The position numbers and the translations under genes are program-made. From Protoeuglena noctilucae (Eukaryota): a DNA stretch of 64,000 nt. Each line of letters starts with the position of its first letter. Position 1 is the stretch's first letter. A model generated the notes under the pieces. It was not told where the DNA came from, made no database searches, and saw nothing but the letters and a program-made list of their open reading frames with translations. This document shows positions 8,540 to 46,480 of the stretch, piece after piece. The DNA lies in contig OY253672.1 of the NCBI GenBank assembly GCA_958009085.1, positions 1,488,001 through 1,552,000 on the forward strand, written 5' to 3'.

Positions 8540-8817
8540 CTGGATGCGGGGCGTCCCGCCGCTTCGCCAGCAGACGCCACGACAGCAGCGCGGCCGAGGC
8601 CGCGATGGAACCGGAGATCATCCTGACCTAGCTACGACCCCATCGTGAAATTCACCATCTCGTCGATATTCGATGCATGCGCGGAGGTGCGTGGAGTTTC
8701 GTCTCGCTGAGAAAATTGCCGCAAGAACTGTTCGTCAGGAAGCCCTCCACTTGGCCACGCGACTGCACGCTCCCGGCCTCTGTGTCTGCGCAGCGGTCGC
8801 CAACGTCTCGACCAGCG

Positions 8818-10143
8818 ATGGCGACCAGCTTGGTTCGATTGCAACGTTGCTTTCCCGCCGCCAGGACTCGGCTCGCGTCCGTCGCACGGCATATGAGCGC
8901 GAGTGCGCCGCCTTCTGCAGGCGCAGTAGGTCCTGACAGCGTCATGGAGGCACCTCTAAAGGTAGGGGTAGCTCGGGCGATGCAGTTTCCCCTCCTGGCT
9001 TCTGCGAAAGTCGCCAAGTGGCCAGCAATGCGCTCTTGGCGGACCCCGTGATCCGCAGTGCGCCGAGGACTCCTACAACGGCGTGCTCGTCGACGAGGGG
9101 GCGCTGCCGTCCTCGCCCGGCGAGTTCCACGGCCTGCTGCGCGCGTCGATCGACGCGTGGCGTGCCCAGGGCAAGCGGGGCGTGTGGCTGCGCGTCCCCA
9201 CGAGCAAGGCCGCGCTGGCCGGCCCGGCCGCGGAACTGGGCTTCGAGTTCCACAGCGCCTCGCCTGGATGGGTTTTGATGACGCGGTGGCTGCCCTCGGG
9301 CCCCAACACGCTCCCGGCGGGGGCGAGCCACCAGGTGGGCGTGGGGGCCATTGTGGTCAACTCGAAAGGGGAGCTGCTGGTGGTGCAGGAGCGCAACGGG
9401 CCTCTCAAGGGCACGGGCGTGTGGAAGATGCCGACGGGCCTCAGCGACTACGGGGAGGACGTGATGGACACGGCCGTGAGGGAGGTCCACGAGGAGGCGG
9501 GTGAGGGGACTGGTAGGGTGGCTGTTTGCATGAGGAGGCGGGTGTTGCACGGGGGGGCGGGTGAGGGGACTGGTAGCGTGGCCTACGTGCATAGAGTGGC
9601 TGGCCATGACATGGAAGCCCGATCGCACACATCGTCCCCCTCCCCCCGCCCCTGCAGGGATCGACTGCGTGGCGGAGGGCATCATCGCCATTCGGCAGAT
9701 GCACGGCCTCGCCAACGGCAGCAGCGACCTGTTCGTCGTGGTGGGGTGCCGCCCGGTGGATGAGTCGCAGGTCGTGGTGGCACAAGAAGCCGAGCTGGTG
9801 GGGGCCAAGTGGATGCCGCTGGAGGAATACCGCAACATCGAGTTCATGCGGCGCCGGGCACTGTACGCCAAGCTCGTGGACAGGTGACGGTCCCTGTGGT
9901 GTCGGCGATTGGCAGTTTGACAGGCACATGGCCTTCCCAGCAGTGCTACGTCCCAGCAATGCTAACCCATACATCACAAGCACGGGCAGCTAGGTGCGTT
10001 GCAGAGGCGGTTTGGCTGAAGCGAGGCTGAGCTGTTGCCCCTACAGGTGCGTGGCCTGGGCCAAGGGCGAGGTGCCATCCATGAGGGGCGAGAAGCTGGA
10101 CGCCGGATTCAATCGCGGGGCCCAATGGCTCTTCACTGTCTAA
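8818..10143 (+). CDS. Nudix hydrolase (NUDT6 / plant NUDX2-8-like) with organelle-targeting-like N-terminus; 4 exons (8818-8961, 9059-9500, 9658-9883, 10047-10143)
   Basis: EDSYNGV..WRAQGKRGVWL..GFEFHSA..LPAGASHQVGVGA..LLVVQER..WKMPTG, Nudix box GLSDYGEDVMDTAVREVHEEAG; GT-AG introns keep phase. Confidence 0.88.
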
Positions 10144-23844: not shown

Positions 23845-25325
23845 ATGGCGACCGTGGTGCCGCATCCGTACCTTCCGAAGGACTTACACCTCCCAAATTA
23901 TGTCCCCCCTACGTTCGGTCGCCCGGAGGTGCGCCGCCCAGATGGCCGCGTTTGTGCGGCGGCCCATTCCAAGCCCCGCGGCGTGCATTTCGTCGGGCGC
24001 CTTCGCTGCATGATGGCAGCGCTTCTTTGTCCGTTGCACCTGGACACATTCACGGCTCCGGTCTGCCGCGCGCCGGCCGTGCGCGGATCTTACGCTAGTG
24101 TTGGGGCTGCCCGCCCAAACCAGGCCGCGGGCGCCGCGAGGCCACGAGACAGCCCCCCGCGGCCCGCGCGCAGGTCCTGAGCGTTTTCTTCCCGATCGTT
24201 GCCTTAATCCTGGCCTGGTGCATCAACTACACGCGCTCATCGTCCAACCACGGCCTCAGCACGACTACGGAGAAGCTCATGTTCTCCTGGTTCGTCGGTG
24301 AGCTCTCCCTCTGCGCGGGTCGCACTCCTCGATTGCGCTTGAGCATACGGACAGCAGCGCGTCCGCGGACGACCCGGCGCGCGCGCGCGTGGCCGTGATT
24401 TCGCGGCATGTGGCGCTGCTCGCAGCGTGCGGCTTCATCCACTTCTTCATTGAGGGGTCCTTCGTGCTCTACCTCGACTTCCACGCGGACAAGGGCGACA
24501 AGGGCTTCTACTGGTCCTTCATGGCCAGCCTGTGGAAGGAGTACGCGAACGCCGATTCGAGGTGCGATGGCCTGGGAGAGCAATTGAGCGAGGCGCAGTT
24601 ACTTAGTAATGCACTTGTCTCCTATGCTTTACAACCAGCATGATGATGCGGACTAATCCCTCTCTTGGCCTGTCAGGCCATTGCGTGTCCCTTGCGTGTG
24701 TCCCTCGCTCCGAGACCGGCAAGCGACCGTCGCTCGCCCCTTTCCCTTCTTGCCAGGTACGCCTGGGGCGACGCCTTCATCGTCACCATGGAGGCCTTCA
24801 CCGCCTTCGTCGAGGGCCCCGCCTGCTGGGCGATCGCGTACGGCATGGCGACGACCAAGGCCTGGCGCTATCCGCTCATGATGCTCACGTCCTTCGGTCA
24901 GTTCTACGGATGCCTCCTCTACTTCCTCACCTCCTACTACACCGAGCTCCGCGACATCCGCCCCGAGCCCCTCTTCTTCTACTTTTACTTCCTCATCATC
25001 AACCTCTTCTGGATCGTCGTACCCGTGGCAGTCTGCACGCACGCGTGGGTCAAGGTGACGCGACACGCTCACGCGCCCACACGCTCGCGCACCACAGCGA
25101 GGCACACGCGGGGGCTCTGTTACCGCATAGGACGATGTCTCTTGTACTGCACTTCGCGATGTCTCTTGCACCATGCCAACTGACCCTCCCGTACCACCGC
25201 ACCAAGTGACCCCAGTGCACCATACCAAGTGACCCTTCTCCACCCACTCTGCACCCCCGCAGATGTCGTCGGCGGTGGCCAGGGTGGAGGAGCCGATCAA
25301 GGCCCAGGAGAAGAAGCTCAAGTGA
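23845..25325 (+). CDS. EBP: 3-beta-hydroxysteroid delta8-delta7 isomerase (EBP/HYD1 family)
   Basis: PHPYLPKDLHLPNYV, CGFIHFFIEG, LWKEYANADSR|Y, VTMEAFTAFVEGP, FYFYFLIINLFWIVVP; C-terminal KKLK* is an ER-retrieval-type motif. Confidence 0.9.
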
Positions 25326-25523
25326 TCTCTGTCAGCGGTCGTTTTTCAACAGGCGTGTCGACATCCGCCATGCAGGCTTTCTGTTCCACATGAATGAGGT
25401 GTCTCGACAGCACGCACCGCACCTACAATGCGGGCTTTCTGTCTGTTCCACGTGGTGTTTCAGGCACAGTCGGCATGGTAGCACCCCTCGGTTGGCTTGG
25501 CCGCCGCGCGCCCTCTATCTCCG

Positions 25524-27161
25524 TCACCGGTCGGCCAGGCTCCGCATGCTCTTGAAGAGAGACAGCTCCGACGCCGCCGCCGCGTCCATCAGCCACGACA
25601 GCTCCGCCCCGAGAGCCTTGGGCTGCACGAGCGCCGCGGGGGCGGCACCCCTCTGCGACCGAGACGATGTGACTACACTCGCGGCACAGCTGGCGATCTG
25701 TAGGCGTACATGATAGGTGAAGCACAGTCGCATGCAAGCATCGATGCCATGCCCTGCGCGTCTGCTCACACGCATGCCAAGTACTGTACGCAAGCACAGC
25801 ACATACACATGCACACAGCACGCACGCACAGCACATTCGCACAGCACGTCCGCACCTCAAGGTTCTGCTCCTCAAGCGCCATCCGCACCGCCGCGGCCTT
25901 CTTGGACCCCGTCATGCAGATGACAGCCTTGGCGGTGCTGGACATGAGCGCGGCCGTCATGGTGATGCTGGCTGACCCGTCCGCCTTGACTTGGGGCACC
26001 ACGAGCTTGTCGCCCGTCGCGAGCGTGGCCGGCTGCCCCGGGTACAGCGATCCCACGTGGCCGTCCGCGCCCATGCCCAGGAGCACCAAGTCGAACTGCG
26101 GGAGGAGAGGAGAGGAGATGGGCAAGAGAATGATCAGTCATGGAAGGAAGTGCACCCCACTTGGCACACGCCCGTCAGCCATTGCATGCGCCCGTCAGCA
26201 TTGCACAAGACAGTCACCCATTGCTTGTGGCCATTGCATGCGGCCGTCAGCCCTCGCTGGTGCAGCACATCGCATGCATCACCCACCTGGGGGAGTCCCG
26301 TGACGGGGTCCCTGGGCATCTTGGCTCTCTTCTCCATCTCCAGGATCATCTTCGAATATCTCTCGGCCTCCTCCTCCGGCGACTGCAACCACAAGCGCAT
26401 GCCGAGGCAGTAAGGGTTAGGGTAAGGGTCCCATGCGCCATTGAGCCGTGACGAGCGCACGTGACACGCGCATCGCATAGCACAGTCATGCGACTGTGAG
26501 GACCTGGTAGCCTCTTACCAGGGTGCCGTCGACGGTGAGGAAGTGCGGCTTGGTGGGGAGGTCTTTCACAAAGGCCTGCAGGGCCTTGGCATGGGACGAC
26601 TTGGGGTGAGAGTCGAGGACACAGCGGTGGTTGACGTACGCGATGTGGACCTTCCGCCAATCGAGACGCATCGCCGGGCCCATCGGCTCCCGCACCAGGC
26701 CACTGCGGTGAGGGACGCGCGGGACAGGCTCGCGCGTGATCAGGTTTTTCACGTGTCGATCAATCGATCGAGCCGCCGCCGAACGTGTGCTGTCCACACC
26801 TGAGCGCCTCCAGGACCGACCCTCCCGGTATCGCGAGCGTGAACGTGTTCTTCCGCGCGATGCTCTCCTCCGCGGCATCCAGTACGAGGCCGCAGAGGGC
26901 GGCGTCCACCTCATGCGGGCTCGGGTACACGTCGACGGACAGCGGGTTCTCCGGCGCCTTCGAGATGTCGCGCGTCATGCCGTACTCGGTGTATTGCCGA
27001 TAAAATCGACAGCTGACCTCCCGCGCCGGACGCTCATCCCGGGGCGCCGGACCAGGCCAGATTACCCGACGCGGGACGCATGGCGACGACCCGCTGCCGC
27101 TTGGCCCGCTTCGGGGAACAGCAGCTGCCGGAGTCCGACCCAAAGAGAGCGATGATGCCAT
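25524..27161 (-). CDS. PGL: 6-phosphogluconolactonase, plastid-targeted
   Basis: Transit-peptide-like N-terminus; FTLAIPGGS, LDWRKVHIAYVNHRCV..HPKSS, EEEAERY, FDLVLLGMGADGHVGSLYPG, ITMT..GSKKAAAV, WLMDAAAAS. Confidence 0.88.
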
Positions 27162-27710
27162 CAGGACCCAAATTAAGCCCCCCGCCGTCTAGATGAAGGG
27201 TGCGACCCAGTCAATCAAGCATCCACACCCTGAGCTGAGTTGAAGGAGCTCAACAGCACGAGCTCCTACTCGCGTGCAGGAGAGTATAGCTATCGCTGAC
27301 GTCACCGGCGCACTTCGCTCAAACCCTGCCGACGGCGGCTGTCAGAGAACGCACCCTGGCCAAAAAACCACGGTGGTCTCGCAGCCTGCCCCGCACTTCA
27401 ACGCCCTGCTTGGTTGCTAGCCCATCGCGCTGAATCAATCGTGCACTAGAGTCGAGCAAAAAACTGCGTGCGTCTTTCGCTCCAGCTGCGAGCCCCGGCA
27501 GTCTCGCAAAGCTTGCGTAGCCCCTCTGCTGGGCAAGAGACAAAGAGCACTGGGTCGCACACCGGCCCTTGTCAGCGGGCACGTCCGAGCGCGCAGCCTC
27601 TGGCCTTGTGTCGGCAAGCGACCCGTGGGTCGCGAGGGCTCGCGATTCGCTCGCGGATGGTGGCGTAGCGGAGTCGGTTGGCGACATCGCGTGGGAAGGG
27701 CTCGGGAGAG

Positions 27711-30700
27711 ATGTCAGCTCGAGCCGCTGCGCCCGACGCGGGGACGGCGGGCCCCACCCCGCTCGTGTCTACCAAGGTGGGCGTCGGCGAGGGCCGTTGG
27801 CATGCCTCTGTTGCCAAAATGCAATTTGTCATGTTCATGGCGCGTTCTGTGGGCTGCGCCGACGTTGATAGCGGCCGCCGCGGACGGGAGAGCCTGCGCC
27901 GCCACGTCGGCGTTGCAGCCCATCCCCCGCCCGCTGCACAGCGTGCATGGAAAGCGCCGCAGTGTGCAGATCTAGTGTCTTGTGACTCGCGGCGCTTCTC
28001 ATTCATGTGCCCCACTCGACGGCGCGGTCGCTGCAGGCACTTGCCCCTCTTGGGTTGTTTGCAGCGCCAACCACTCGCCGTCCGCGACCCGATGCCCGCT
28101 CGCGACTGTCCGCAGGAGCCCTTTTTGGAGCCGGACCGGCCTCGCCGCATCCAGGAGATCACGTTCGACGTGCAGTCGCCGATCGAGATTGCGGCGTGCA
28201 GCGCGCTGAACGTGTACGAGCACCGGCTCATGCAGATGCCCGTGCGCGCGCCCACCCCGCACGGTCCCCTGGACGCGCACATGGGCGTGTCGAGCCGGCA
28301 GGCCGTGTGCGAGACGTGCGCGGGGAAGCTGTCCGAGTGCGCCGGCCACTTCGGCCACATCCAGCTGCACCTCCCCGTCTTCAACATCGGCTACTTCAAG
28401 CACGTCATCGCGATCCTCCAGTGCATCTGCAAGTCCTGCGCGCGCGTGCTGATCGCGGACGAGGAGCAGCGGAAGACGCTGCGCAAACTGCGGAGGCCCG
28501 GGATCGAGCGGCTGCAGCGGGCGGTACTCTTCAAGGCGAGCGGCGGCTCCGATGGGGATGGAAAATGACTGTTTATGAATGTGTTGATATAATTACTGAC
28601 TTGGTTGCGTTGATTGCGCAATGCTGGAGTGACATGCGTTCGGACATCCGTGTGCTGCAGCGAGTTGCACCCACCCATGTCGCTCCCCCTTCCGTCTATC
28701 CCATCTCCGCCACCCATCTGCTCCCCGCAGCGCCTCCTGGACAAGGCCAAGCGCGTCAAGGTGTGCCCGTGGTGCGGGGAGGGCAATGGCACCGTCAAGA
28801 AGTGCCCCGGGTCCCTGAAGATCCTCCACGACCGGTACGGGAAGGGCGAGTCGGAGGCGCTGCTGGACCGGAGGCAGCGATTCGAGGACGCGGCGCAGTG
28901 AGTGCGGGGGGAGATTGCATGTTGTGCAGTGACAGGCTTGTTAAGTAGGGCCAGCGCAGGTCAGCCGGGGCGGAGAGATGCGATGGCTGGGTACGAGCAG
29001 CGATGCGCCTGTGCATGACGCCTCTCCCCTGTCGCCCTTGCTCTTTCAGGGCCAACCCCGAGATTGCCCCGCTGATCAAGGGCATGGTGGAGCTGCTGGA
29101 CCCACTCAAGGTGATGACGAGTGCTTGAGTAGTGAATGATAGTTGATGATAGTAGTCGCAAAGCACAACTCACGCAATGTATACGTGACTCATCGACTCA
29201 CCTCCCCATCCACAACTAATACTCATGCAACGCATAGCACTGCACCACAGCAATACGCAACACCTCACTCCCCTCACTCTCCAATCCTCTCTCCCCCCTC
29301 AGGTGCTGGAGCTGTTCCGCCGCGTCCCCGATTCGGATCTGCAGATCCTGGACCTCGGGGGCCGACCCGAGAACCTCTTGATGACCAACCTGTCGGTGCC
29401 CCCCGTGTGCATCCGGCCCAGCGTGGAGATGGAGGGGGGGGGGGGGAGCAACGAGGACGACATCACGGGTGAGGGGATGTGGGATGCGATGGTTGGGATC
29501 AGTAGCGTTGGGGGGGGAGATGTATGAAGTGGTCAGTGGCATTGTTGGGGAGATGTTTGGAACTGGCAACACTGTTGGGGAGATGTTAGGAATCTCCAAA
29601 CATCGGCAACACTCGCATGCAGGTGCGCAGGAGGTCACTGCCATGCATGTACAACCCCATTCTCCCCCCCCTCCATCACCCGCAGTCAAGATGATGCAGA
29701 TCGCCATGCATCTACCATCACTCACTCTCTCTCTCTCACTTGCAGTCAAGATGATGCATTCTAATGCATCAACATTCTAATGCAAAATCAACCTCTCTCT
29801 CCCCTCACTTGCAGTCAAGATGATGCAGATCGTGGAGGTCAACCGGTGCATCGAGACCGGGCTGAGCGGCCTGCTGGCCAAGAACGTGGCGGAGTGGTGG
29901 GACGGGCTGCAGACCGAGTGCGCCCAGTACATCAACTCCGATCTCCCAGGCATGCCCAGCACGCTCCAGACGCAGGGGAAGCGGCTCAGGGGGTTCGTGC
30001 AGCGGCTCAAGGGCAAGTCGGGGAGGTTCCGGGGCAACCTGTCGGGTGAGGAGGTGGTGGTAGTGGTAGTGGATGGTGGGGTGACTGATGTGGCAGTGAC
30101 TGGGGTGGTAGTGACTGGGGTGGGTGTGCGGTGACGGGGGAACCTGTCGGGTGAGGGGGTGGTGGTAGTGGTAGTGGATGGTGGGGTGGGAGTGTGTGAA
30201 CGGGGCAACCTGTCGGGTGAGGGGGGGTGGTAACAGGATGGTAGTGGATGGTGGGGTGGGTGGGGACGGGGCAAGATGTGCGGGGAGGGGGCGGGAGCGG
30301 ATGGGGTGGGTGCGCATTACCACTGCTGGCTTCATTGTTACACACCACAGCTGCCGCCCCCATCGCCACCCAACCTCAGTTCACCACCACTCACCCCAAT
30401 CCCCCCCCCCCCCCCCCCCCACCCCCCCCTCCCCCTCTCTCCCCAGGCAAGCGCGTGGACTTCACCGGCCGCACCGTCATCTCCCCCGACCCCAACGTCC
30501 GCATCGACGAGGTGGTCGTGCCCGAACTGATGGCGACTGTCCTTACTTACCCTGAGCGTGTCACCGAGCACAATATCGAGAAGCTCCGGCGCGCGGTCAT
30601 CAACGGAACGCAACAGCACCCGGGCGCGAGGTTCGTGATCAGCAAGGACGGGCACAAGAGCTTCCTGCAGGTGCGGGTGGTAGGGGGGGTGCTGTGGTGC

Positions 30701-33700
30701 TTTGCCATATATCGTGCTGTGGCAGATGCAGTGGCGTCTGTGTCTCGCCGGCCCCGTGCGTGCTGGTACGCTTTAACAGGCTATTATAAAACTATAATAA
30801 GATTATAATATACCAGCATCACGTATTCGCATACATTTACTCCGCAGTACGGCGACCGTCGTCGCGTGGCGGCTGAGCTGAGGGTCGGGGATGTGGTGGA
30901 GAGGCACCTGTGCAATGGGGACGTGGTGCTGTTCAACCGGCAGCCGTCGCTGCACCGGTGAGCGACATGCTGATGATGGGGATGAGCATGGGTGGGTGTG
31001 CGTGCGTGTGAGTGCGGGGCGAGTGGTGCGGACGGGCAGTGGGGCTGATCGCTTTCTCATCCCATCCACGCAGTGCGACCATCTGCGATTGGCATATCCC
31101 ACCCATCTCATCCCATCCTAACCACATGCATGCATTCCATCCCACCTCATCCCACCCAACCCCACCCCTTCACACACAGAGTCTCCATCATGGCCTTCCG
31201 CGTGCGTGTGCTCCCCGGCCGCACCCTCCGATTCAACGAGTGCTGCTGCACGCCATTCAACGCGGACTTCGACGGTGAGAGTAGTAATACTATAGTATTG
31301 ATATAGTACCACTATGCACGCCATGCAACAATGCAGACTGCGACGGTGAGAGATAGCGATGCTATACGAACACTGTGCATGCATCCACTCCATCGTCACC
31401 CATCTCACCCCAACATCACTCGTCCCATTCCATTATCACTCATCTGCTTCCTCACAATCGCAGGCGACGAGATGAACATCCACGTCCCCCAGACAGAGGA
31501 GGCCAGGGCAGAGGCCATGTCGCTCATGGGGGTGCTCAGGTGAAGACTATATGTTATATATAGTATTGTTAACATATCATCGACACATGCCATGTCGCTC
31601 ATGGGGGTGCTCAGGTGACACAGACATGAGACCAGTACCATCAACACATGCCATGTCACTTACAAGGGAGGGCGGTGGCAAGCCAGCCCCACACTAACCT
31701 GAGCTCCCCTGTATCAGAAACAGTCATCACCCCCACCCCCGACTCACCCTTATCTCTCCCATCTCCCATCTCCCATTACCCCCAGCAACCTGATGGTCCC
31801 CTGTAACAGTATCACCCTCACCACCCCCACCCCCATCTCACCCTTATCTCATCTCCCCTCATCCCCAGCAACCTGATGGTCCCCAAATCGGGCGAGATCC
31901 TGGTGGCCGCTACCCAGGACTTCCTCACCTGCGCGTTCCTGCTCACACGCAAGGACTGCCTCTTCAGCAGGGCAGAGTTCGGGCAGATGTGCAGCTACAT
32001 GGGGGACGGGCTGGAGAGGTGAGGGGGTGGTGGTTGTAGTAATGGTGATAGCAAAGTGGGTGGGGGTGGTGATGGAGTAGATGAGCATGGATAGGCTGGA
32101 GAGGTGAGGGGGGGGGGTGTTCTTAGCATGGATGATGTGTGGGTGGCAAATGGTTTACCCTTTCGCACACCGCATCGCCCACGCTAGCTCATCCCAGCTT
32201 CCCGCACAGTCACGCATGCACGCACCCCCCCTCCCATCTCTCACAACAACAACAACAACAATAATGACAACACCAACAGCACCACAACACCAACAACACC
32301 CTCTCTCCCCCCAGGGTGGACATCCCCCCCCCGCCATCGTCAAGCCGCTTGAGATGTGGACGGGGAAGCAGCTTTTCTCGGTGCTGCTGCGGCCGAACGT
32401 GGATGTCCGCATATTCGTGACGATGGAGACGAAAGAGAAGATGGGGTGCAGCTGCAAGGGGGTGGCGGGTGAGTGGAGAGGGAGTGGGGGTGGGNNNNNN
32501 NNNNNNNNNNNNNNNNNNNNNNNNNNNNNNNNNNNNNNNNNNNNNNNNNNNNNNNNNNNNNNNNNNNNNNNNNNNNNNNNNNNNNNNNNNNNNNNNNNNN
32601 NNNNNNNNNNNNNNNNNNNNNNNNNNNNNNNNNNNNNNNNNNNNNNNNNNNNNNNNNNNNNNNNNNNNNNNNNNNNNNNNNNNNNNNNNNNNNNGGGGGC
32701 GACGGGCAGCCGTTGGATTTGAATCGCCTGCTGTTGCGCGTGATGGCACTCACGCCAAGACAAGCCGACGAGACGTGGCTGCTGCCCGGTGCTCTGGAGA
32801 GAGCGGCGGAGAGGGGGGCGGAGGGGGTGGGTCTGGTGGCAGATAATGCATGGGGCATTAGCACTCGGTTTGTGGAGGCGGTGAGGGGTCGGTTGGGGGA
32901 GGTTGCAAGGGAGTTGCGGGGCGTGCGGAAGCAAATGGGGCTGCCGGAGGATGCGAGGGGCGATGCGGATGTGGAGGCAGTGGCGGGGAGGGTGGCGGGC
33001 ATGACGGAGCGACAAGTCACGGTGAGGATTCGGTTGATGAGAATGGGAATTGTGAATTGTGAAATGCGTATTGTGAATTGGGTGCTGTGATGGTGGGATG
33101 ACGGAGCGGCAGGTGACGGTGAGGGGTGGGTGGGTTAGGGCATCAGATGGCCGGTCGTGATTGTTTGCGTCGAGCGAACTGTTACTGCCACCAGCGTCAC
33201 ATCCCAATTATCGAATCTCCCCATCCCTCCCCGCAGACGTTCCTGCATCTGGCCCGCCGCAAGTTCGAGTCCAAGGTGGCCGACCCGGGCGCCACGGTGG
33301 GGGCGTACGGAGCACAGAGCATCGGGGAGCCAGGCACGCAGATGACGCTCAAGGTGATTGGGATATTGTGATTGTGATGACTGTGACGGTGATGGTGATG
33401 ATTGTGGTTGTGACTGGGAATGGGATGGTGACTGCGATGATTGCGATGGAATGGAGCATTTCATGTGTGTATGGGTATGGGTATGTGCATGTATTTGTGT
33501 CGATACACTTACATGTACCTCTCCCCCACCCCCGTGTCGTCGGCGCAATGACGAAGATCCCTTCGCTTGCTGGACGGTGCCTATGGCCCCAGTGGCAGCG
33601 AAAAGCACTGCTCTAGAATTCCACTGAGCGCCGATAAAGACACGGGGGATGTGGATCGAGACGTGGTGTTTATTTATATCATGTGTTCATGTAACTTTAT

Positions 33701-35875
33701 CCTGCGCTGTTGTCCACCTTGCAATGCGCTCTTGTGCCGCATGCCGGCGTTTTTCCTCCAACCCCACCCCCGCCACACACAATGCCACCCACCCCACCCC
33801 TCACTCCCCCCCCCCCCCCAGACCTCCCACCTCGCCCCCCTCATAACAACCAATCCCCCCCCCCCCCCCCCAGACCTTCCACTTCGCGGGCGTGGCCGCC
33901 ATGAACGTCACGCTTGGCGTCCCCCGCATCAAGGAGATCATCAACGCGGCACGCAACATCTCCACGCATATTATGCGCGTCGAGCTGACCAACCCCAGGG
34001 ACGCCGAAGCTGCCAGGGAGGTTAAAGCGAGGCTGGAGGCGACGACGCTGGGCAGCGTGTGCGAATATATCAAGACAGTGGTTACTCCCTTCGATTGCTA
34101 CATCGTGGTGAAGCTCGACACGGCACGGCTGGCCAGGATCAACGTGGCGCTGCACGCGTCGCAGGTCGCGAGGGCGGGTGAGGGGTGGAGGGGGGAGGGT
34201 GTGCGGGTGGGGTGTTGGGAGTGGGGTGGGGTGGAGGTGGGGTGCGGGTGGGGGGGTTGGGTGCGGGTGCGGGTGGGATGGAGTGGGGTGTTGGGAGGGA
34301 AAGGGGTGGACTGCGGCATGTTGGGTGTTGGGTGGGGTGGGTCGGGTGCTGTGTGAAGCGTGTCGCAATGCTGTGTACCCAATGGCCGCTCTCACATACC
34401 AACCCAGTACCACCCTCACCCCTCTCGCAGTGCAATGTTCACTGTATTGGCTACCCATACAGCACCATCACCCCTCACACATTGCTATGCACCCACCTGT
34501 TTAACTCTCACATACCACCCCATACCCCCCCACATTCCCCACCTATTGCAGTGCTGGGCGCCAAGCTCAAGCTCAAGCCCCCCATGATCCGCGTGGAGAA
34601 CGCTGCCAAGCTCCTCATATTCCCCGACGACCTAACTAAAGACAAGGACCGGGAATACGAAGGGAAGTCGCTGTTGGGGCATATGGAGGAGCTGCGGAAG
34701 GGGCTGCCGGGGGTGGTCGTGTCCGGGGTGGCGACGGTGACGAGGGCGATTATCAGCCAGGAGCAGGGGCTGTTCAAGGTGTTTGCGGAGGTGAGGGTGT
34801 GTATGTGGACCCTATCTTATCCAAGTATTTCATGTTGTTATGTCTTATCTCGATACCTTATACCCACCCCACCCCGTTCTCTCCCCCAGGGCACGGACCT
34901 GCCTATCTGATATTATTATTACATATCGTTGTGTTGCATCTCAATACCTTATACCCACCCCACCCCGTCTGTTCAGGGCACGGACTTGCAGGCGGTGATG
35001 TCGACCCCCGGCGTGCAGCACAACAAGACGACCACCAACCACGTGATGGAGGTGCTGGGGACGCTGGGGATTGAAGCGGCGAGGGAGACAATCATCAAAG
35101 AGATACAGTACACGATGGGTGAGTGACGAGGGGGGTGGTGAGGTGCAGTGACATGGGGTGACTAATGAGAGAGATACAGTACACGATGGGTTTGGGGCAT
35201 TTATGGGGGGGATTGGTGAGGTACAGCGAGTGACACGATCAGCAAGCGCCACTAACACACCCCCCTTCCCTGCTCCCCTCCCTCCCAGGCTCCCACGGCA
35301 TGGTCATTGACTACCGCCACATGATGCTGCTGGCCGACTGCATGACGTCTCGGGGCGAGGTGCTGGGCATCACGCGGTTCGGCATCGCCAAGATGAAAGA
35401 TTCCGTGCTCATGCTGGCGTCTTTCGAAAAGACCACCGATCACCTGTTCGAAGCCGCTGTCAGGCGCACGACTGACACGATCAATGGAGTGTCAGAAAGC
35501 ATCATCATGGGCATACCCATACCGGTCGGGACCGGCCTGTTCCGTGTGCTGCACAATGACCCGATTGTCAGGGAGGAGGAGCGCGTGAGGGGGGTGGGGC
35601 CGGACGCGGTGAAGGGCGGCGGGCGCGAGGGAGCGGTGGCGGAGGAGCCGGCAGCAGGGAGGGGCGTGGGGGGTGGTGGGGTGGGTGGGAGCGGGGCGGG
35701 TGGGAGTGGTGTGAACACGACCGGGGCAGTGAAGGAAGAGCCGGAGGGTGCGCGTGGGGTGGTGCCGGCGCCCGTGCGGCCAGCCAAGGCGGGGCCGAAG
35801 TCAGCGAGGGATGGGGCGAGGCGGGGGTTCGAGGTCGGGTGGCCGGTGCGCCGGACGCCCCTGCTCGCCTACTGA
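27711..35875 (+). CDS. RPC1: DNA-directed RNA polymerase III largest subunit (RPC1/NRPC1); many exons, central part lost in the assembly gap
   Basis: [159 protein letters not shown] (Pol III type; no CTD heptads). Confidence 0.95.
29682..35191 (+). repeat. Series of direct repeats duplicating RPC1 exon-intron junctions inside the adjacent introns
   Basis: Examples: gcagtcaagatgatgca at 29682, 29742, 29811; aacctgtcgggtgagg at 30036, 30141, 30207; gccatgtcgctcatgggggtgctcaggtga at 31514, 31589; ccccagcaacctgatggtcccc at 31780, 31863; agagatacagtacacgatgggt at 35099, 35170. Confidence 0.95.
32495..32694. other. Assembly gap (200 N)
   Basis: Run of N inside RPC1, flanked by G-rich sequence. 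Confidence 1.
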
Positions 35876-36202
35876 GAGTGGGGGCTTAGAGAGCGGCAAG
35901 CGCGGAGTTAACATGAGAGTGGCTGTGTATGCTGGGTGTCTGGATAAAGTGCAGTGGCGTGCATGAGGTAACGTTGGGTACGGCCGTAGCAGCGCTGCGC
36001 CATTTGCTGGGCCCAAGCAAGTGCGCCTTGAAGAGCACGTAACATCACAAGTCGCATCTGCTAGGTCACAGATATCATCGGCATCAACACTGACAGAGAT
36101 GCCAATTGTTCCACTTGCTCTCAACCAACGCGTTCAACCGCAGCGCAAATATAGCGACAAGACTGGCCCACCACGCAGCCCCATCCTCAAACCATCCCCA
36201 TT

Positions 36203-39200
36203 TCAGTACGCCGCGGCGCTGAACGCGTCCTGCGTGAGCCGCAGCAGCGTCTGCCGCAGCAGCCGCGCCTCGGACGCGATCGTGCGCCTCTCCCCCGCCG
36301 ACCCGGCCCCATCGTATGTCGTGTACTTGGTCTTGCCCTCCTTCTCGATCTCTTCTAAAAATGCCATCATCTCCTGCACCGTGGCGTCCCGCACCACGAT
36401 CATGAGCTTGGCCATGTTGTCCAGCATCGCCACAAAGCATCGCTTGGCGTAAAGCCACGTGTCCGGTGACAGCCGCTTGGCGTATGGCTCCAGAGCTTTG
36501 ATGACCCTTAAGATGCCGAACTCGAAGTTCCCCTTGGCGCAGTAGAGCGTGCCGATGGTGAGATTCACGATGCAAAGGTGGTAGTAGGACTTTTCGCGGT
36601 CGTTGAAGCCGGCACGCTCCTCGTCGCGCTGGGAGCAGGGGTGGGGTGGGGTGGGGTGAGGGTGAGACATGCAACATGCAAATGCGGTCATCAGTTAGTA
36701 TTGCAACCATCACTCAGTGTTGCGGGGCCGTCGGTCAGTGCTGCGACCACTACTCAGTGCTGCAACCATCAATCAATTGCAACCATCCATCCGCGTCCTT
36801 CCTCACAGCAATCAAGTCAACCAGCCACCCATCCCCACCTCGATTCGCTTCATCAGCTCCTCGGCGTCGATGTTCTGGTTGGTCATGATGTAGGCCACGC
36901 AGAGGTTGGCCAGCACGATGGCGGGCACGCGGAGCACGTCGTCCAACTCCTTCCGCACCAGCGGCTGGTAGTAACTGCGGGGGGGGGGGGGGGGGGGCGG
37001 CGAGACAAGCAAGCGTGGCGTGGGGCAACATGGCGATTGCGGTGCGGTGGGCGCGCTCTCTGCTGTTTATGGTCAGCGTCGCTTGGTGCCGCTCCCCACC
37101 CCTTACGTCACCGCATGCCCACATCCCCGCACTCCAACCCCACGCATTCCACACCCTCATCACACAGCCACACCCTCATCACACACCCACGTCCCTCACC
37201 GAATGGCCTCCTCCCACTTCTCCTCCCGAAACAGCACGTGCGCCACGTTGAGCTGCCAGACGTCCTGGTCGGAGCAGAACTCGGCGCTCTGCTTGAAGAT
37301 CTTCTCCACCATGGGCCAGTTCTCGGCGTGCCAGTGGATCTCGCCCATGCCCATCAATACGGGGAGGTACATCTCCAGCACCTCGTCGTACTCCTGGGAT
37401 GGGGGCAAAAGGAATGAGAGGCATTATACATAGTCCTGCTATCATACATCTCCAGCACCTCGTCGTACTCCTGGGAAGGTGTACAGCGACAGATTGATTG
37501 TAAATGAGTGCTTGCTCCAGCCGACCAGCGCCGCCGTGTGTGAATGCCTAGTGGTATGCTTAGTACCGTGCTTACGAATCCAAGTAAGGCAGGGCTCTGC
37601 ATGGGCCCCGGGCAGTGCAGCCAGGAGCAGAGGTGAGCAGCAGACGTATCGGGGAGTTGCCGAGAGTGCGAGTGGTGTCTGCGCATGGCCAGCCTCGTGG
37701 CGTCCCTCGCCTGAACGGCCTTCTTGACGGCGAGGTTGTCGTTGGAGTTGCGGCTGTCCTGGATGCGCTTGGTGATCTGGCGCAGGCGCTTTACGTACTC
37801 GTCCGCCATCGCGTCCCACATCGTGTGCGCCGTCTCGGCTGCAGGGGGGAGAAGGATCAGTGGGGAACGTGCTATGACATCCAAAGAGAGACAGGACCAG
37901 TACCTGGCTAGTCTCAGCCAGATGACGCGCTCTGACGACCGAAACACAACCCCGCCCCCTGTGCTGGCTGCCAGCTCGGTTCCCAGCGCGCACCAAGTAC
38001 CACCAAGCACCACCAAGTGAGTTACCCCCACCGCTTGTCAAGGGCCCTATCTCCTGTTCCCAACACAACACAACACAACCCGCCGTGCCAGACGCCATTG
38101 CCACCACTCACGCGACTCCTGCCGCGCGATGAGCGCCTGCAGGAACTGCCGGACGTCCGCCCTCAGCGCCGACTGCGCCATGTCGGGGTTCTCGGCCATC
38201 ATGTCAGCGACTAGGTTATACCGGGCCACCGCGGGCCTGCAGCATAGGAGCAAGAGGTTCTGGAAGGCCTCGGGGGGATAGGGCGGGTTCTGTAAGAGAT
38301 GATTGAGCTTCCGGAAGGACTGGGAGGTGTCCTCGTCGAATTGCACCAGGGCCGAGTTGTGCAGCGTGATCGCGTCCACCTCCTCCTCCTGGCGGGGGGG
38401 AAGGTCCTTGAGCACCTGCGGGGTTTGTAATGAGAGGGAAGAGAGGTGAGGGGGGTGAGCAGCTTTGGTATGAGCATGCTGTGCAACTGGGGGCATCTAA
38501 GCGTTCGCAGCATTAATGCAACTGTGAAGTAAGGCTTGTGCGCTGGCCCTCGACGCATCGATATATGATCTGACATCAACAACGACCCACCTCCCGGGCC
38601 TGCTCGACGTTCTTCATATTGAACTCGATGGCGGCCTTCAGGTTGAGCGCCTCCACGATGGCCGTCTCCCGCAATACGAGAGAGTTGCCCACGCTGCGCA
38701 TCTCTGCGGGGTGGGGGGGAGGAGAGGTGTGCTGGTGAGCATGGAGGGGTCGGTGGGTAAATATGGGGCACGCAGCAAGGGGGCCAGAAGGAGCTAGAAG
38801 GAGGCGAGGCGATGGCGAGCGCGTGCAACATGCAGACACGCATCCTCGTCCCCTCCCAAACCACCACCCCCACCACCCCCTCCCACCACTCGCCCGACTC
38901 CTCCAAATAAGACCCCACGCCGAGCTCCGGGTGCTCGCGGATCCCCCTCTCGATGATGGAGGCCACGAGCTTGAGCGCGTCGCCGTACCGCTTGGTGCGG
39001 TAGCAGCACAGCGCGGCGTTGTAGACCTGCTGCGCGTCGAACGAGGGCGACGCCGTCTCGAACCGCTTCTGCGCCTCCTCGTACTTTTCCTCCCGGAACA
39101 ACAGGCAACCCTCCATGACCTGCAGGGGGCGGACGGAGCGACACGCTCGTGGTTCATCATAGTCCATCCCTCCATGTCATGCGTGTCATGGTCCTGCTAC

Positions 39201-40630: not shown

Positions 40631-43295
40631 ATGGAGTTCCCATGGTTCCGCCAGCAGTTCGTCGACCCCCGCAGCTGGGCCGAAGCTGAGACGCTGCCCT
40701 CCTCCTCCGGCAGCACCACGGTAGCGAACGTGTCGCTCAAAGGGGATGCCCAGGCCCCCCGGAACGGTGAGCGGCCCCGCGGCTCAGCGGCAGTTCCGGC
40801 TTGCCGCGCTCAGGTGGCCCTCTCGACCCCCTCCGGAGCTGCGTAACGACTCTTGAGGGGCGGGCAGCGCCTCCGCGGTACCCAGAGCGCGCCCCGGGCG
40901 AGGCACTGGGATGCCTTGACGTGATCCCTGACCGCCCCGTCCGCGGGGTGTTTGCGCATCCGACCGTCTCCCGTTTCACTATCGTAATAGCATTGGCGCT
41001 TTCCATTGCGCGCATCGTGAGTTGTGCCCCGCCTAGCTCGGGGCGAGGTGCGGCGAGAGGCATGCCAGGCGGAGGCCGTGCGGCGCGCGGGACCGTCGTG
41101 GGCCGCGCGGAGAGCCTCGCCTCGGAGCATGGGGATTTGTAGAGCCGTTGGGGAGCGCGGGATCGCGGCGAAGGTTCCCGGGAGTTGTTCGCGCCTAGCT
41201 CGAGGACCTCGCGCTAACGGCCCATTTTCCCGCCCTGACCTCGATCCGCAGGCGGAGCGCGGATACTCAGGATGTCGCTGGGCAAGCTTGACCTCACCAA
41301 TATAGGGCAGCAGAGAGCGGAGAACCCGGACCACGGCCCCTCGACCGAAATGGGCAACAGGTGCGGCGCGGCTGCGGCAGGCCGGCCCCGGGCGCGCGCC
41401 GCCCGCGGCCTCTCGCCATCGCGGTCGTCCTTCCTCGTCCGCAGGCGGCAGAAGCTGCTGGAGTTCGAGTCGCAGTGCAACAAGGTGGACGAGGGCCTGT
41501 ACGTGTCTTCCGAGCTGGTGGCCAAGAACCGGGAGCTCCTGCGCCTTGCCGGCATCACGCACGTCGTCAACACGATCGGTTTCATCTGTCCCAACATGTT
41601 CCCGGACGAGCTCAGCTACCTCCTCATCAACATCCTCGACTCCCCGCAAGAGGACATCCTGGTGCGTGCGTGGAACATGGCGCCCATGCTCGCTCACACC
41701 CTGACAAATCCGCTGGCCGCACCCGGTTCATGCTCCCGCGCCCTGACAGATCACCTGGCCGCATTTGCTCCCTGCGCACGCGTCCCGGCGTGGCATAACC
41801 AACCCCCATCCCGCGCCCTTCACCCCGCAGCCCGTCCTCTACGACGTGTTTGACTTCATCGAGTCGGCCATCTCCGCGGGCGGCAACGTGCTCGTGCACT
41901 GCTCCCAGGGGGTGTCCCGGTCGACCGCCCTGGCCATCGCGTACATGATGTGGAAGCACGGCCACTCCTACGAGGACACCTTCAACGTCGTCAAGCAGGC
42001 GCGCGGCGTCGCCAACCCCAACATCGGCTTCACCTGCCAGCTCCTGCACTGGCACAAGCGGCGCATGCAGGCCCTGGCGCCCCTCCACGGCCCGCGCCCC
42101 GTGTCCCCGGCGACCCAGCAGCCCCTGCCCCGCGCGCGACTCTACCGCATCGCCGCCTTCTCCGTCCACAACCCCACCTACCTCGTCGCCAAGCCGGGGC
42201 CCACGTCGCCGGGGGTCTCCGCCCTCGACACCCGGGGCATCTTTGTCGTCCACACCGCCGCCAAGGTCTACATCTGGGTCGGACGACGCGCGCGCCAGGA
42301 CTACCTGGGGCCCGCGCTCCGGGCCGCCACGCAGCTCGCCAAGTATGAGGCGAGTCGCCATGCGCAGGGTGGCAGAGGGGCCGATCTCTCATTGTCGTCT
42401 CGTCTCTCATTGCCGGGTGCAGCGAGAGACCGGGCGCGGTGCGCCTCTCAATCTCTTTGACTCGGTCCTGTGATGTGATCCGCACGCAGGGCGCCTCGAC
42501 GGCCCGGGAGATGGTGGAGGAGGGCGCGGAGACGCCGGCGTTCCTACTCGCGCTGCAGCACCCGGGGCCGCTGCCGGCCGGGTGGACCGCCGAGCCCGTG
42601 GAGGCGTACACGCCCGACTACGACATGTACGCGGACGCGCGGCCCGAGGCGGGCGCGTCGCCCCGGTCGATCGGCCGCAGCGAGTCGGACAACACGGCCG
42701 GGCGGCCGCCCGCCGTGAGGACGGTCCCCCGCATGGCGGTGCCCATCGTGGGGATCGCCGTCGACCCCCTGGTGGAGTGCCGCAGGGTCTTCCTGAAGGG
42801 CCAGGCCGAGGTGCGTCTGCGATGCTGCCTACGGGCGTCGCCTGGTCAGTGTTCCCCATACATGAGCCTGCCTGCCTGGCGTCGGCCACTGACGCAATGC
42901 GCACATACCGTCTTCTTCCCGCAGATGATGCACGCGCCTCCGATGTCGGAGAGGAGCAGGAAGTCGCACGTGAGCGAGTCCGGGGACGACATGCTGGCGG
43001 GGGACGGCTTAGACCGCGGGGAGTCGAAGCCCGGCGCGTGGAACGAGGGGCACCTGCAGACCCACACGCGCAAGCTCCAGCGATCCCTGTCGGACCACAC
43101 AGGTGGGTCGGAGTGACACACAAGGGCGCGTAACGCATGCGGCGAGCGTGCGTCATGCACGCAAATGGGCGTGGGGGGCACTGTTGACGCGCGTCGGGTG
43201 CCGTTGTTCGCGCAGACGCCTCGGCGCCGTGCACACCGGGGCGGTCGCGCAGCTCTCGCCTCGTGGCGGAAGATCCGGACGTGGCGATGGCGTGA
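40631..43295 (+). CDS. Dual-specificity MAP kinase phosphatase, plant MKP1-like (DSP plus gelsolin-like domain); first exon tentative
   Basis: GITHVVN..DSPQEDIL|PVLYDVFDFIE..VLVHCSQGVSRSTALAIAYMMW..ARGVANPNIGFTCQLL, then RLYRIAAFSVHNPTYLV..LDTRGIFVV..VYIWVG..VEEGAETPAF. Confidence 0.88.
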
Positions 43296-44951: not shown

Positions 44952-46480
44952 TCACTGCCACTTGGCGATGGCCGAGGCCCACGTGAGCCCCGCGCCGAAG
45001 CCAGCGAAGGCCAGCGTGTCGCCCGGCTGGATCTTGCCCCCCCGCACCGCCTCGTCGAGCGCCAGCGGGATCGACGCGGCGGACGTGTTGCCGTACTCCC
45101 CCAGGTTGCTGATGACCCGGTCTTGCGGGAAGCTGTACCGCTCCGCCGCCGAGTCGAGGATGCGCTGGTTGGCCTGGTGCAGGACCATCCAGTCCACGTC
45201 GTCCTTGGTCAGGCCCCCCATCGCCAGCGCCTCGTCGAGCACCTGAGGGACCGCACGCACCGCGAACTTGAACACCTCCTGACCATTCATCTGGATGTTC
45301 TCGAACTCGGCCCGCGCCGCCCGGCCCTCGGCAGCCAGCCCCGGCTTGTGCACCAGCGTCGCCGTCGTGCAACACAACTTGGACAGGCCGTGACCGTCGC
45401 TGTGCATGGCGTGCCCCAGGAGCCCGTCCCGTCCGGCGTCCGTTGCCTGGACCAGGACAGCGCCTGCGAGAGGGACACGGGGCTTGCATGGTCCGTGCGT
45501 GGTCGCGCGTGCACACGTCTCATGGCCCCCCCGGCCCGCCAGCTGCGGCGAGGCCCACCTGCACCGTCACCGAAGAGGATGCACGTACCCCGGTCGTTCC
45601 AGTCCACGAACCGCGTCAGGCAGTCGGCGCCGACCAGCAGCACGTTCTTCGCCATGCCGGACCGGACGTACGCCCCCGCAGTGATGAGCCCCAGAACGAA
45701 GCCACTACACGCCGCCGTGAGGTCCATGGCCACCGCCTTGTTGGCGCCCAAGCCCGCCTGCACCGTGGTAGCGCTCCCAAACACATCATCCGGCGTCGAC
45801 GTGCACAGCAAGATCATGTCCACCTCCTCCGGGGCCACCCGCGCCATCTCCAGCGCCCGCCGCGCCGCCTCCGTCGCGTGGTGACTGATCTTCTCCCTGC
45901 GGTCGCAGCGGCGGGATGCGCTGAGGACCACAGGCTCGCCCACCTCGACCATGCGGATTGGCCCCCTCTGTTTCTCACCCCTGGCTCAGCACATGCCGCG
46001 CGCGGATGCCCGTCCGCTTCGTGATCCATTCATCGGACGTCTCCACGAGCTGTTCCAGGTCCGCGTTGCTCAATCGCGTCTCGGGCACCGACGACCCCAC
46101 CCCGCTCAGCCTGCGAGCAGCCCGGGGCGGACTCGATCGCGATGCTGCAGTGATGCGGCGAAACGACTGGGTTCTGCGTCGCCGCCACAGACCGAAACGC
46201 ATGACAGCTTGCGCGGGCAGGCGGGCCCGGCGTGAGCTTCCCGCTGCGGCAACTCAATTGAGGAGCGCGCCCGCGCTCCTGGACCCTGCTCCACCGCGGG
46301 CCATGTATTCCCCCAAAAACGTCTAAGGAGAAGCGTGAGGGGTGGTCTTTCGGGCCGAAGGACCGACGAGCGCGCTGTGGTGCGCGCCCCGTGCCACGCG
46401 GCGAGGGCGCGGGTACAGCAGCGGGCCCCGGCCAGCCAAGGGTGCAGACGCATCGCCAGACGGTACCCCGCTCATGACAT
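44952..46480 (-). CDS. fabH: 3-ketoacyl-ACP synthase III (FabH/KAS III), plastid; N-terminal exon(s) uncertain
   Basis: [42 protein letters not shown] (catalytic Cys), [56 protein letters not shown]. Confidence 0.93.

Follow-up and report, generated by a model that had tools for sequence, protein, structure and literature searches.

What leads a splice junction to reappear inside its own intron, and how might the spliceosome keep to the original when the copies look just as good? The question is raised by RPC1, the gene for the largest subunit of RNA polymerase III, which occupies positions 28092-35875 on the plus strand of a 64,000-nucleotide (nt) stretch of Protoeuglena noctilucae DNA (contig OY253672.1, positions 1,488,001 to 1,552,000; the window, here and below). 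An earlier note on this DNA had listed ten RPC1 junctions as repeated in the neighbouring intron. We use the term echo for a copy of a splice junction plus some flanking exon, located inside that junction's own intron. The data described below indicate that the echoes are probably ordinary short head-to-tail duplications (approximately 50-130 nt), which straddled junctions by chance and were kept where the outer site still wins.

The window is intron-rich, with a GC content of about 64.5% (mean of 32 bins), which does not match the values published for Pseudoscourfieldia, Chloropicon, Mamiellophyceae and Prasinoderma. Full-length RPC1 homologues, found with one exon, aligned to it by tblastn as 14-15 colinear segments (15 for the relative P0011); they carry the domains PF04997, PF00623, PF04983, PF05000 and PF04998, and their source annotations are RPC1. 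When the pieces were joined at GT/AG borders an open spliced frame appeared, made of 17 exons and 15 complete introns (152-520 nt each, 3964 nt in total), with 30 complete junctions. A gap of 200 N (32495-32694) conceals the middle of the gene, approximately residues 495-781 of P0011. The exons map as follows.

28092-28535, 28731-28897, 29050-29110, 29303-29468, 29815-30045, 30447-30670, plus strand: RPC1 exons before the gap, first part
30848-30957, 31180-31274, 31464-31539, 31869-32018, 32315-32469, plus strand: RPC1 exons before the gap, second part
32695-33021, 33237-33353, 33874-34177, 34552-34790, 34977-35118, 35289-35875, plus strand: RPC1 exons after the gap

The first RPC1 intron (28536-28730) is of the GC-AG type and begins GCGAGC. 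RPC1 introns such as 30046-30446 and 34178-34551 are G/T-rich in their 5' halves (GGTGGGG-type) and C/A-rich in their 3' halves (CCCCACC-type), so that an approximate complementarity between the two ends might allow them to pair in the transcript. An Rfam search of 27000-37000 on both strands returned no match at E values up to 0.1.

As a test against chance, a probe made of 25 exon nt and 8 intron nt was built for each junction and aligned to its own intron and to the 14 other RPC1 introns. Ten of the 30 junctions scored 13.5-29 against their own intron, while the same probes reached at most 11.5 on the other introns and the remaining 20 junctions scored 5.5-9.5 on their own. All ten matches, obtained with probes run against the whole intron, lie at the junction's own side: six donor echoes downstream of the true donor and four acceptor echoes upstream of the true acceptor. 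These are the ten of the earlier note, each recovered in its place by repeat finding and by BLAST of the window against itself, and the junction numbers given there correspond to the first or last intron base. The self-alignment of junctions to their own introns that it had proposed, here run within RPC1 with other-intron and exon-internal probes, placed the same ten above the null. Beyond these ten, intron 9 holds a third, decayed copy (about 31646-31680) and intron 5 a fourth (30245-30291), intron 34178-34551 has a weak acceptor echo, and two further genes in the window carry echoes. The arrays in RPC1 are listed here, with the score of the junction probe where one applies.

29673-29832, plus strand: intron 4 acceptor array, three copies (family D8; self-BLAST; score 22 against at most 8 in other introns; X1 and X5 contigs); decoys 29673-29703 and 29733-29763, with exon parts of 18 nt in one and 13 nt in the other; true junction 29814/29815 within 29802-29832
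30025-30291, plus strand: intron 5 donor array, three to four copies (families D3/D4; Tandem Repeats Finder (TRF) 30116-30291, period 66, 2.6 copies, 82% matches; score 22); true junction 30045/30046; copies 30130-30188 and 30196-30254; decayed copy 30245-30291
31247-31366, plus strand: intron 8 donor echo (self-BLAST 31247-31294 against 31315-31366, 52 nt, 81%; score 18.5; alignment); true junction 31274/31275; decoy donor 31346; period 68-71 nt; spacer AT-rich
31509-31680, plus strand: intron 9 donor array (family D12, 31509/31584; self-BLAST; score 29; alignment); true donor junction 31539/31540; decoy 31584-31618, 30 nt identical; decayed third copy
31719-31884, plus strand: intron 9 acceptor echo (TRF period 83, 2.0 copies, 81%; family D6, 31732/31815; score 22); decoy AG 31784-31785; true junction 31868/31869; tandem unit 83 nt; exon part 16 nt
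32004-32115, plus strand: intron 10 donor echo (family D18, 32004/32089, 89%; score 18); true junction 32018/32019; decoy 32089-32115; period 85 nt
32998-33138, plus strand: donor echo of intron 33022-33236 (family D11, 32998/33095; score 20); decoy 33095-33138; period 97 nt
33806-33887, plus strand: acceptor echo of intron 33354-33873 (family D2, 33806/33858, 93%; score 17); decoy 33806-33835; period 52 nt; exon part 14 nt
34389-34553, plus strand: weak acceptor-side tandem repeat of intron 34178-34551 (families D10 and D20; 34389-34437 against 34505-34553); period 116 nt (52-64 nt sub-units); about 3 nt of exon; junction probe not above the null
34811-34989, plus strand: acceptor echo of intron 34791-34976 (self-BLAST 92 nt, 78%; family D7, 34811/34902; score 13.5); decoy AG 34888-34889; tandem unit 91 nt; exon part 13 nt
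35094-35191, plus strand: donor echo of intron 35119-35288 (family D17, 35094/35165; score 22); decoy 35165-35191; period 71 nt; decoy donor decayed to GTTTGG

In all these structures the duplication is head-to-tail, a unit of 52-129 nt being present in two to four copies. The exon part measures 13-26 nt in twelve echoes, those of the two other genes included, and 3 nt in one, close to the 10-26 nt given earlier; it diverges from the exon by 0-17%, in agreement with the substitutions previously seen in several echoes. The differing ages that this divergence implies, together with the different breakpoints of the two intron 4 decoys, bear out the claim that the duplications recurred. In the intron 5 array the unit is 66 nt long, and the first one reaches 105 nt after internal expansion of a 15-nt repeat. 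Besides the TRF arrays of introns 5 and 9, TRF found no array with a period of at least 40 nt in the 64 kb, except a G-rich 41-nt array beginning at donor 34178. In the self-BLAST of the window, each of the 11 non-self matches is a local direct repeat, at a distance of 60-188 nt, and belongs to a junction array (eight in RPC1, one in a minus-strand gene at 37.4 kb and two in a plus-strand gene at 58.1 kb); no dispersed family and no inverted repeat was detected in it. At five arrays BLAST similarity covers the whole unit (94-201 nt, 69-78%). Elsewhere, well-kept cores of 24-59 nt are separated by spacers that hold secondary short repeats (30081-30123, 58077-58146) or AT-rich patches, and at the short-core echoes (31509, 35094, 37368) the similarity between spacers is weak. 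It is mainly the secondary repeats that set the spacers apart from one another. Of the 3964 nt of RPC1 intron, 1049 nt belong to echo units, or 1165 nt if the weak one is counted (26-29%). Without these units the echo-bearing introns would measure 99-468 nt; the earlier proposal that duplication has lengthened the introns is upheld.

Of eleven AT-rich patches (at least 75% AT over 24 nt) in the window, eight are located in RPC1 introns (28562-28602, 29758-29791, 30771-30821, 31276-31315, 31538-31583, 33664-33700, 34813-34850 and 34900-34936), five of them within echo units. Several hold 7-bp hairpins of the ACTATA/TATAGT kind, and captured filler DNA or a small element is a possible source.

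The presence of the repeats in independent DNA was checked in two sources, namely run X1, taken as a culture run, whose kind is not on record and which covers introns and spacers evenly, and the marine metagenome run X5. Contigs from X1 cover 24000-30082, 30922-32206 and 32695-36997 with zero differing letters, and single contigs span nine of the ten echoes, the intron 5 array being the only one missing. Those from X5 span eight of the ten without difference, the intron 5 and 33819 echoes not being spanned. The contigs break at the 54-nt repeat of the intron 5 array and at 35-nt repeats, which is unavoidable for 31-mer assemblies. No insertion or deletion at the echoes is reported in either source, which is a weak test of copy-number variation as contigs drop rare variants. 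In conclusion, an assembly artefact is excluded for nine of the ten echoes.

The same data bear on the reference at other points of the gene. At 32323 the reference is without one C of a C run in RPC1 exon 11, which breaks the frame; the extra C is present at full depth in both DNA runs. Two length variants were also noted, an extra G in a G run at 32107 (half of the X1 depth) and a 12-nt insertion beside the N gap at 32479 (one X5 contig). An X1 contig and an RNA contig extend into the gap with coding-like sequence.

The earlier description of the inner copies as near-perfect decoys agrees with our measurements, most of them being as good as the true sites. Specifically, the 9-mer of the true donor is preserved in five of the seven RPC1 donor decoys, slightly altered in one and decayed to GTTTGG in another, while on a small matrix the acceptor decoys score 10.8-18.1 against 6.8-18.1 for the true acceptors. 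Use of a decoy is predicted to bring in an in-frame stop for all seven donor decoys and for four of the five acceptor decoys, and a frameshift for the fifth. Conversely, in the tblastn alignments of RPC1 homologues no junction can accommodate additional residues, and the protein of a close relative (P0243, from a 578-nt contig) runs unbroken across two junction positions (...AEGTDLQ... and ...QYTMGSHGMV...). Together with P0242, it also attests to the existence of congeners. Homologue alignments and P0243 both support the earlier statement that only the outermost sites restore the conserved protein. A spliced, transcript-derived protein of the organism's own RPC1 was searched for and not found, P0241 being a genomic open reading frame call within the last exon. 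What is established here comprises the tandem organisation of the echoes, the agreement of the protein with the outer sites alone, the quality of the decoy sites and the stop or frameshift predicted from their use.

In every case the correct site is the one giving the shortest exon and the longest intron, which argues for pairing of splice sites across the exon, or for commitment to the first-come upstream donor, and against a simple shortest-intron rule. We infer that one of these two, the latter as in the human F7 gene discussed below, lies behind the choice of the outer site. Recursive splicing, also put forward in the earlier note, was considered as a general reading and rejected. Recursive splice sites (ratchet points) require AG/GT at the inner site; the likeness to them is that a donor is regenerated in the intron beside copied exon sequence, but AG/GT occurs in only two of the six RPC1 donor echoes (31614/31615 and 32103/32104), as well as in the 58-kb array, and no acceptor echo is followed by GT.

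According to the reading that we favour, a duplication taking in the exon tail, the donor and the start of the intron would leave the true donor first and its copy deeper in the intron, and in the mirror case at the 3' end the true acceptor would come last. With the outer site kept in use the messenger RNA would be unaltered and the extra unit would amount to added intron, while an equivalent duplication within an exon would be purged by selection. Some junctions may have been struck repeatedly, or their arrays expanded to three or four units, with older copies decaying. The outer sites would win through cross-exon pairing, given that the chosen pair always makes the shortest exon; a donor that is upstream and transcribed first would have a further advantage over its decoys, and the G-rich stretch behind donors may aid the choice. 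Transcripts that used a decoy would carry a stop or a frameshift and would probably be degraded. RPC1 is usually a weakly expressed gene, and mis-splicing might be cheap enough there to permit its high load.

Comparison with other organisms is consistent with placement by chance. As comparators we used 80 RPC1 loci from metagenomes (666 kb), none exceeding 63% identity over most of the query and none closely related; echoes were called in them by eye, and the counts of an automatic caller, which overlooked some, were left unused. Junction-spanning duplications were observed in six loci. L066 carries two donor arrays (820-1030 and 1934-2135), one with an AT-rich spacer, and two breakpoints at one donor; L064 carries two acceptor echoes (2977-3159 and 8756-8931) with 48 and 56 nt of exon, and L070 a donor echo (86-297) with about 66 nt of exon; L077 (150-590), L069 and L067 have one or more each. 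Across these loci the exon part ranges from 4 to about 120 nt. Echoes in six RPC1 loci of unrelated organisms suggest that junction-crossing duplications occur sporadically in many eukaryotes with an exon part of any length, as random placement followed by selection would give.

Structures of this kind also occur elsewhere in the window, where two other genes carry echoes, both on gene models derived from coding score only.

37368-37479, minus strand: acceptor echo in a neighbouring gene (self-BLAST 35 nt, 97%); decoy 37445-37479; true acceptor within 37368-37402; period 77 nt; exon part 26 nt
58045-58276, plus strand: donor array in another gene (self-BLAST; own-intron score 28); true junction 58064/58065; decoys 58152-58194 and 58236-58276

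Several observations weigh against chance placement as a full account. About two echoed loci fall among some 90 inferred introns outside RPC1 (a rough count on a crude coding-score map), and in the neighbouring genes none of the 16 junctions of eight RNA-supported introns is echoed, against 10 of 30 in RPC1 (one-sided Fisher test computed by hand, P about 0.007). A uniform scan for local repeats yielded 28 clusters. The 13 in RPC1 form nine loci, all of which include a junction; the 15 outside it comprise two junction-spanning loci, eight internal to non-coding stretches (two within RNA-supported introns, four inspected, the rest placed by inference) and three in coding-like sequence. Junction and internal loci therefore stand at 9:0 in RPC1 and 2:8 outside (Fisher test by hand, P about 6e-4). 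No measurement explains this concentration in RPC1. Exon probes taken at least 25 nt from a junction gave no echo in 363 probe-intron pairs, the five exon-internal pairs scoring at least 12 being G-rich low-complexity matches and one 15-nt match. The exon part is also too constant: it stays at 13-26 nt in twelve cases (3 nt in one) despite units of 52-129 nt, and random placement should have produced many longer ones. The junction-spanning units also exceed most of the internal ones in length, the latter measuring 25-52 nt with a single one of 93 nt. High-identity cores lie beside poorly conserved spacers (for instance 35 nt at 100% at 31509/31584), a contrast that simple duplication does not predict unless spacers evolve fast. 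Finally, the RNA joints listed from metatranscriptomes X9 and X10 are clean GT..AG joints of neighbouring genes, and none is from RPC1. Density, junction bias and narrow exon part are none of them accounted for by the measurements made here. As regards the junction-centred growth process proposed in the earlier note, recurrence and intron lengthening stand; an aim at junctions is unlikely, given the eight internal against two junction-spanning loci outside RPC1 and the wide range of exon parts elsewhere.

A mutational hot spot is the alternative that survives best, though we regard it as unlikely. According to it, junctions would undergo duplication at a higher rate than the rest of the intron, and new units would arise at the junction end: G-rich DNA after donors and C-rich DNA before acceptors would stall replication or transcription, with repair copying 50-130 nt around the boundary, and G-quadruplexes, R-loops or uncut Okazaki flaps are candidate causes. 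This would suit the junction-spanning position of nine out of nine RPC1 repeat loci and the narrow exon part. It would also suit junctions struck twice with different breakpoints (intron 4 and L066), the stronger decay of copies deeper in introns 5 and 9, and the start of the G-rich array exactly at donor 34178. Outside RPC1, on the other hand, internal repeats exceed junction ones 8:2 even though the intron ends are equally G- or C-rich, and exon parts extend to about 120 nt in other organisms. The innermost copy of the 58-kb array is the most exon-like, so that no inward gradient exists there, and X1 shows no difference in copy number from the ocean metagenome X5.

Slightly less likely again is a duplication process directed at junctions, strongest in RPC1, which would repeatedly copy a splice site together with 13-26 nt of exon and push older copies inward. 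The introns would then be partly decayed copies of their own ends, and their growth would be harmless to a spliceosome that strictly takes the shortest-exon pair.

It is improbable that the decoys are useful, either as spare binding sites for splicing factors or as poison sites, through which decay of the RPC1 transcript would set the level of RNA polymerase III. In favour of this, the cores are better conserved than the spacers, and the four exon-part differences of echo 33095-33138 are all silent and at third codon positions (4/4). Use of any decoy would produce a stop or a frameshift, and the echoes cluster in a single gene and are fixed in both DNA sources. The overall pattern of differences nevertheless fits neutral decay. 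Among interior exon-echo differences, 7 of 10 are of the synonymous type against about 44% expected when the echo is free of constraint and the exon changes at silent sites (P about 0.09, computed by hand), which is compatible with free decay of the echo and silent exon drift. Selection on the echoes was rejected, the codon-position analysis being compatible with neutral decay. Moreover, older copies have lost their GT or decayed (30245-30291, about 31646, 35190), and like structures exist in two unrelated genes of the window and sporadically in other organisms.

More doubtful still is the proposal that the echoes are long target-site duplications made by short inserts, for example small mobile elements or filler captured in break repair, with the AT-rich spacers as the inserts. 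The order core (24-35 nt), spacer (36-45 nt) and core again at 31509/31584, 37368/37445 and 35094/35165 has the expected look, as does the frequency of AT-rich patches in RPC1 introns (8/11) and in echo units (five), some of them being small hairpins. Whole-unit similarity at five arrays, on the contrary, takes in the spacers. The spacers that precede copies 2 and 3 of intron 9 close with ATCGACACAT and ATCAACACAT and have their final ten bases in common, which shows that the spacer was duplicated along with the core. BLAST detected no sequence common to the spacers, and we know of no class of element with target duplications of 25-59 nt.

An artefact of assembly, or two haplotypes stitched in tandem, is barely credible: the reference is indeed a draft with a 200-N gap and one C absent at 32323, and several echoes differ from the exon by few substitutions, but single contigs of two independent data sets carry nine and eight of the ten echoes with no difference, the units are not full-length near-identical copies and depth is even.

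Two other origins linked to introns were tried and rejected. The birth of an intron from an AGGT duplication would leave a copy of the upstream exon tail beside the acceptor and a copy of the first intron bases in the downstream exon; both are absent. In a crude comparison, at least five echo-bearing introns lie at positions where the RPC1 locus of another organism also breaks. Introner elements and transposon-derived introns have reportedly been found in marine algae (Worden 2009, Huff 2016 and Gozashti 2022), and the likeness consists in a marine alga, intron-linked repeats and short duplications at intron borders. Unlike introners, the echoes have both copies at the same end of the intron, with repeats of 17-59 nt rather than a few bases. 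There are no dispersed copies in the 64-kb window, each repeat resembling only its immediate neighbour.

The closest precedent is the minisatellite of human F7 intron 7, which Borensztajn et al. 2006 (PMC1557585) describe as a 37-bp variable number tandem repeat whose first unit spans the exon 7 donor; identical intronic pseudo-donors are silent there and the most upstream site is chosen. F7 and RPC1 share a tandem array whose outermost unit holds the true junction, with inner pseudo-sites as good as the true one. They differ in that F7 involves one junction, only a donor, with a 37-bp unit of variable copy number, while in RPC1 10 of 30 junctions are affected, donors as well as acceptors, with units of 52-129 nt and no copy-number difference between two DNA sources; the decoys here are presumably silent. 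Intron birth from tandem duplications crossing an exon-intron boundary, as presented in PMC4974935 (potato RdRp) and PMC3265369, likewise doubles the splice signals, but there splicing makes use of the duplicated sites and an intron is created, whereas RPC1 gains no intron and existing ones lengthen. Our literature search, in a limited set of full texts, returned single-locus cases only and no gene with many echoed donors and acceptors. The earlier statement that no described system shows this pattern therefore keeps its force for the density but not for the kind, of which F7 (PMC1557585) and potato RdRp (PMC4974935) are single cases. This is a known kind of event at unusual density, and its concentration in one gene is unexplained.

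RPC1 offers over a dozen natural near-perfect decoys, at donors and acceptors alike, for each of which the true site is known, and with them a ready test of how the spliceosome of a short-intron organism chooses between equal sites. Choice across the exon predicts the pattern seen, and choice of the shortest intron the opposite. The echoes also provide a simple route to intron growth, about a quarter of RPC1 intron length being duplicated junction, and a warning that gene predictors can select decoys. Should a genome-wide view bear out both the concentration in RPC1 and the narrow range of the exon part (13-26 nt), a mutational or selective process not yet described would be implied.

Local duplications internal to introns of other genes, with periods of 39-93 nt, were noted at 63136-63206, 26178-26251, 58707-58830 and 4225-4315, and further ones at 4508-4568, 25167-25236 and 41699-41763; they should serve as the background for judging the junction echoes. 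The 15-nt match mentioned above (14/15) joins the last RPC1 intron (35227-35241) to the interior of the last exon (35469-35483), 180 nt from the junction, and is probably due to chance. A second GC-AG intron (42350-42489), which begins GCGAGT, is found in a neighbouring gene, where RNA contigs join the flanking exons. The window also carries, at 44961-45985 on the minus strand, a KAS III (FabH) gene of green-lineage type. The best named matches of KAS III and RPC1 are to green plants and green algae, at identities of at most 64%, and by this similarity they point to an organism of the green lineage; a search of a protein atlas gave no taxonomic lead. Within the tested exon, KAS III is identical to a protein of 363 aa encoded on a short public contig, which indicates that transcripts of this organism exist in public data.

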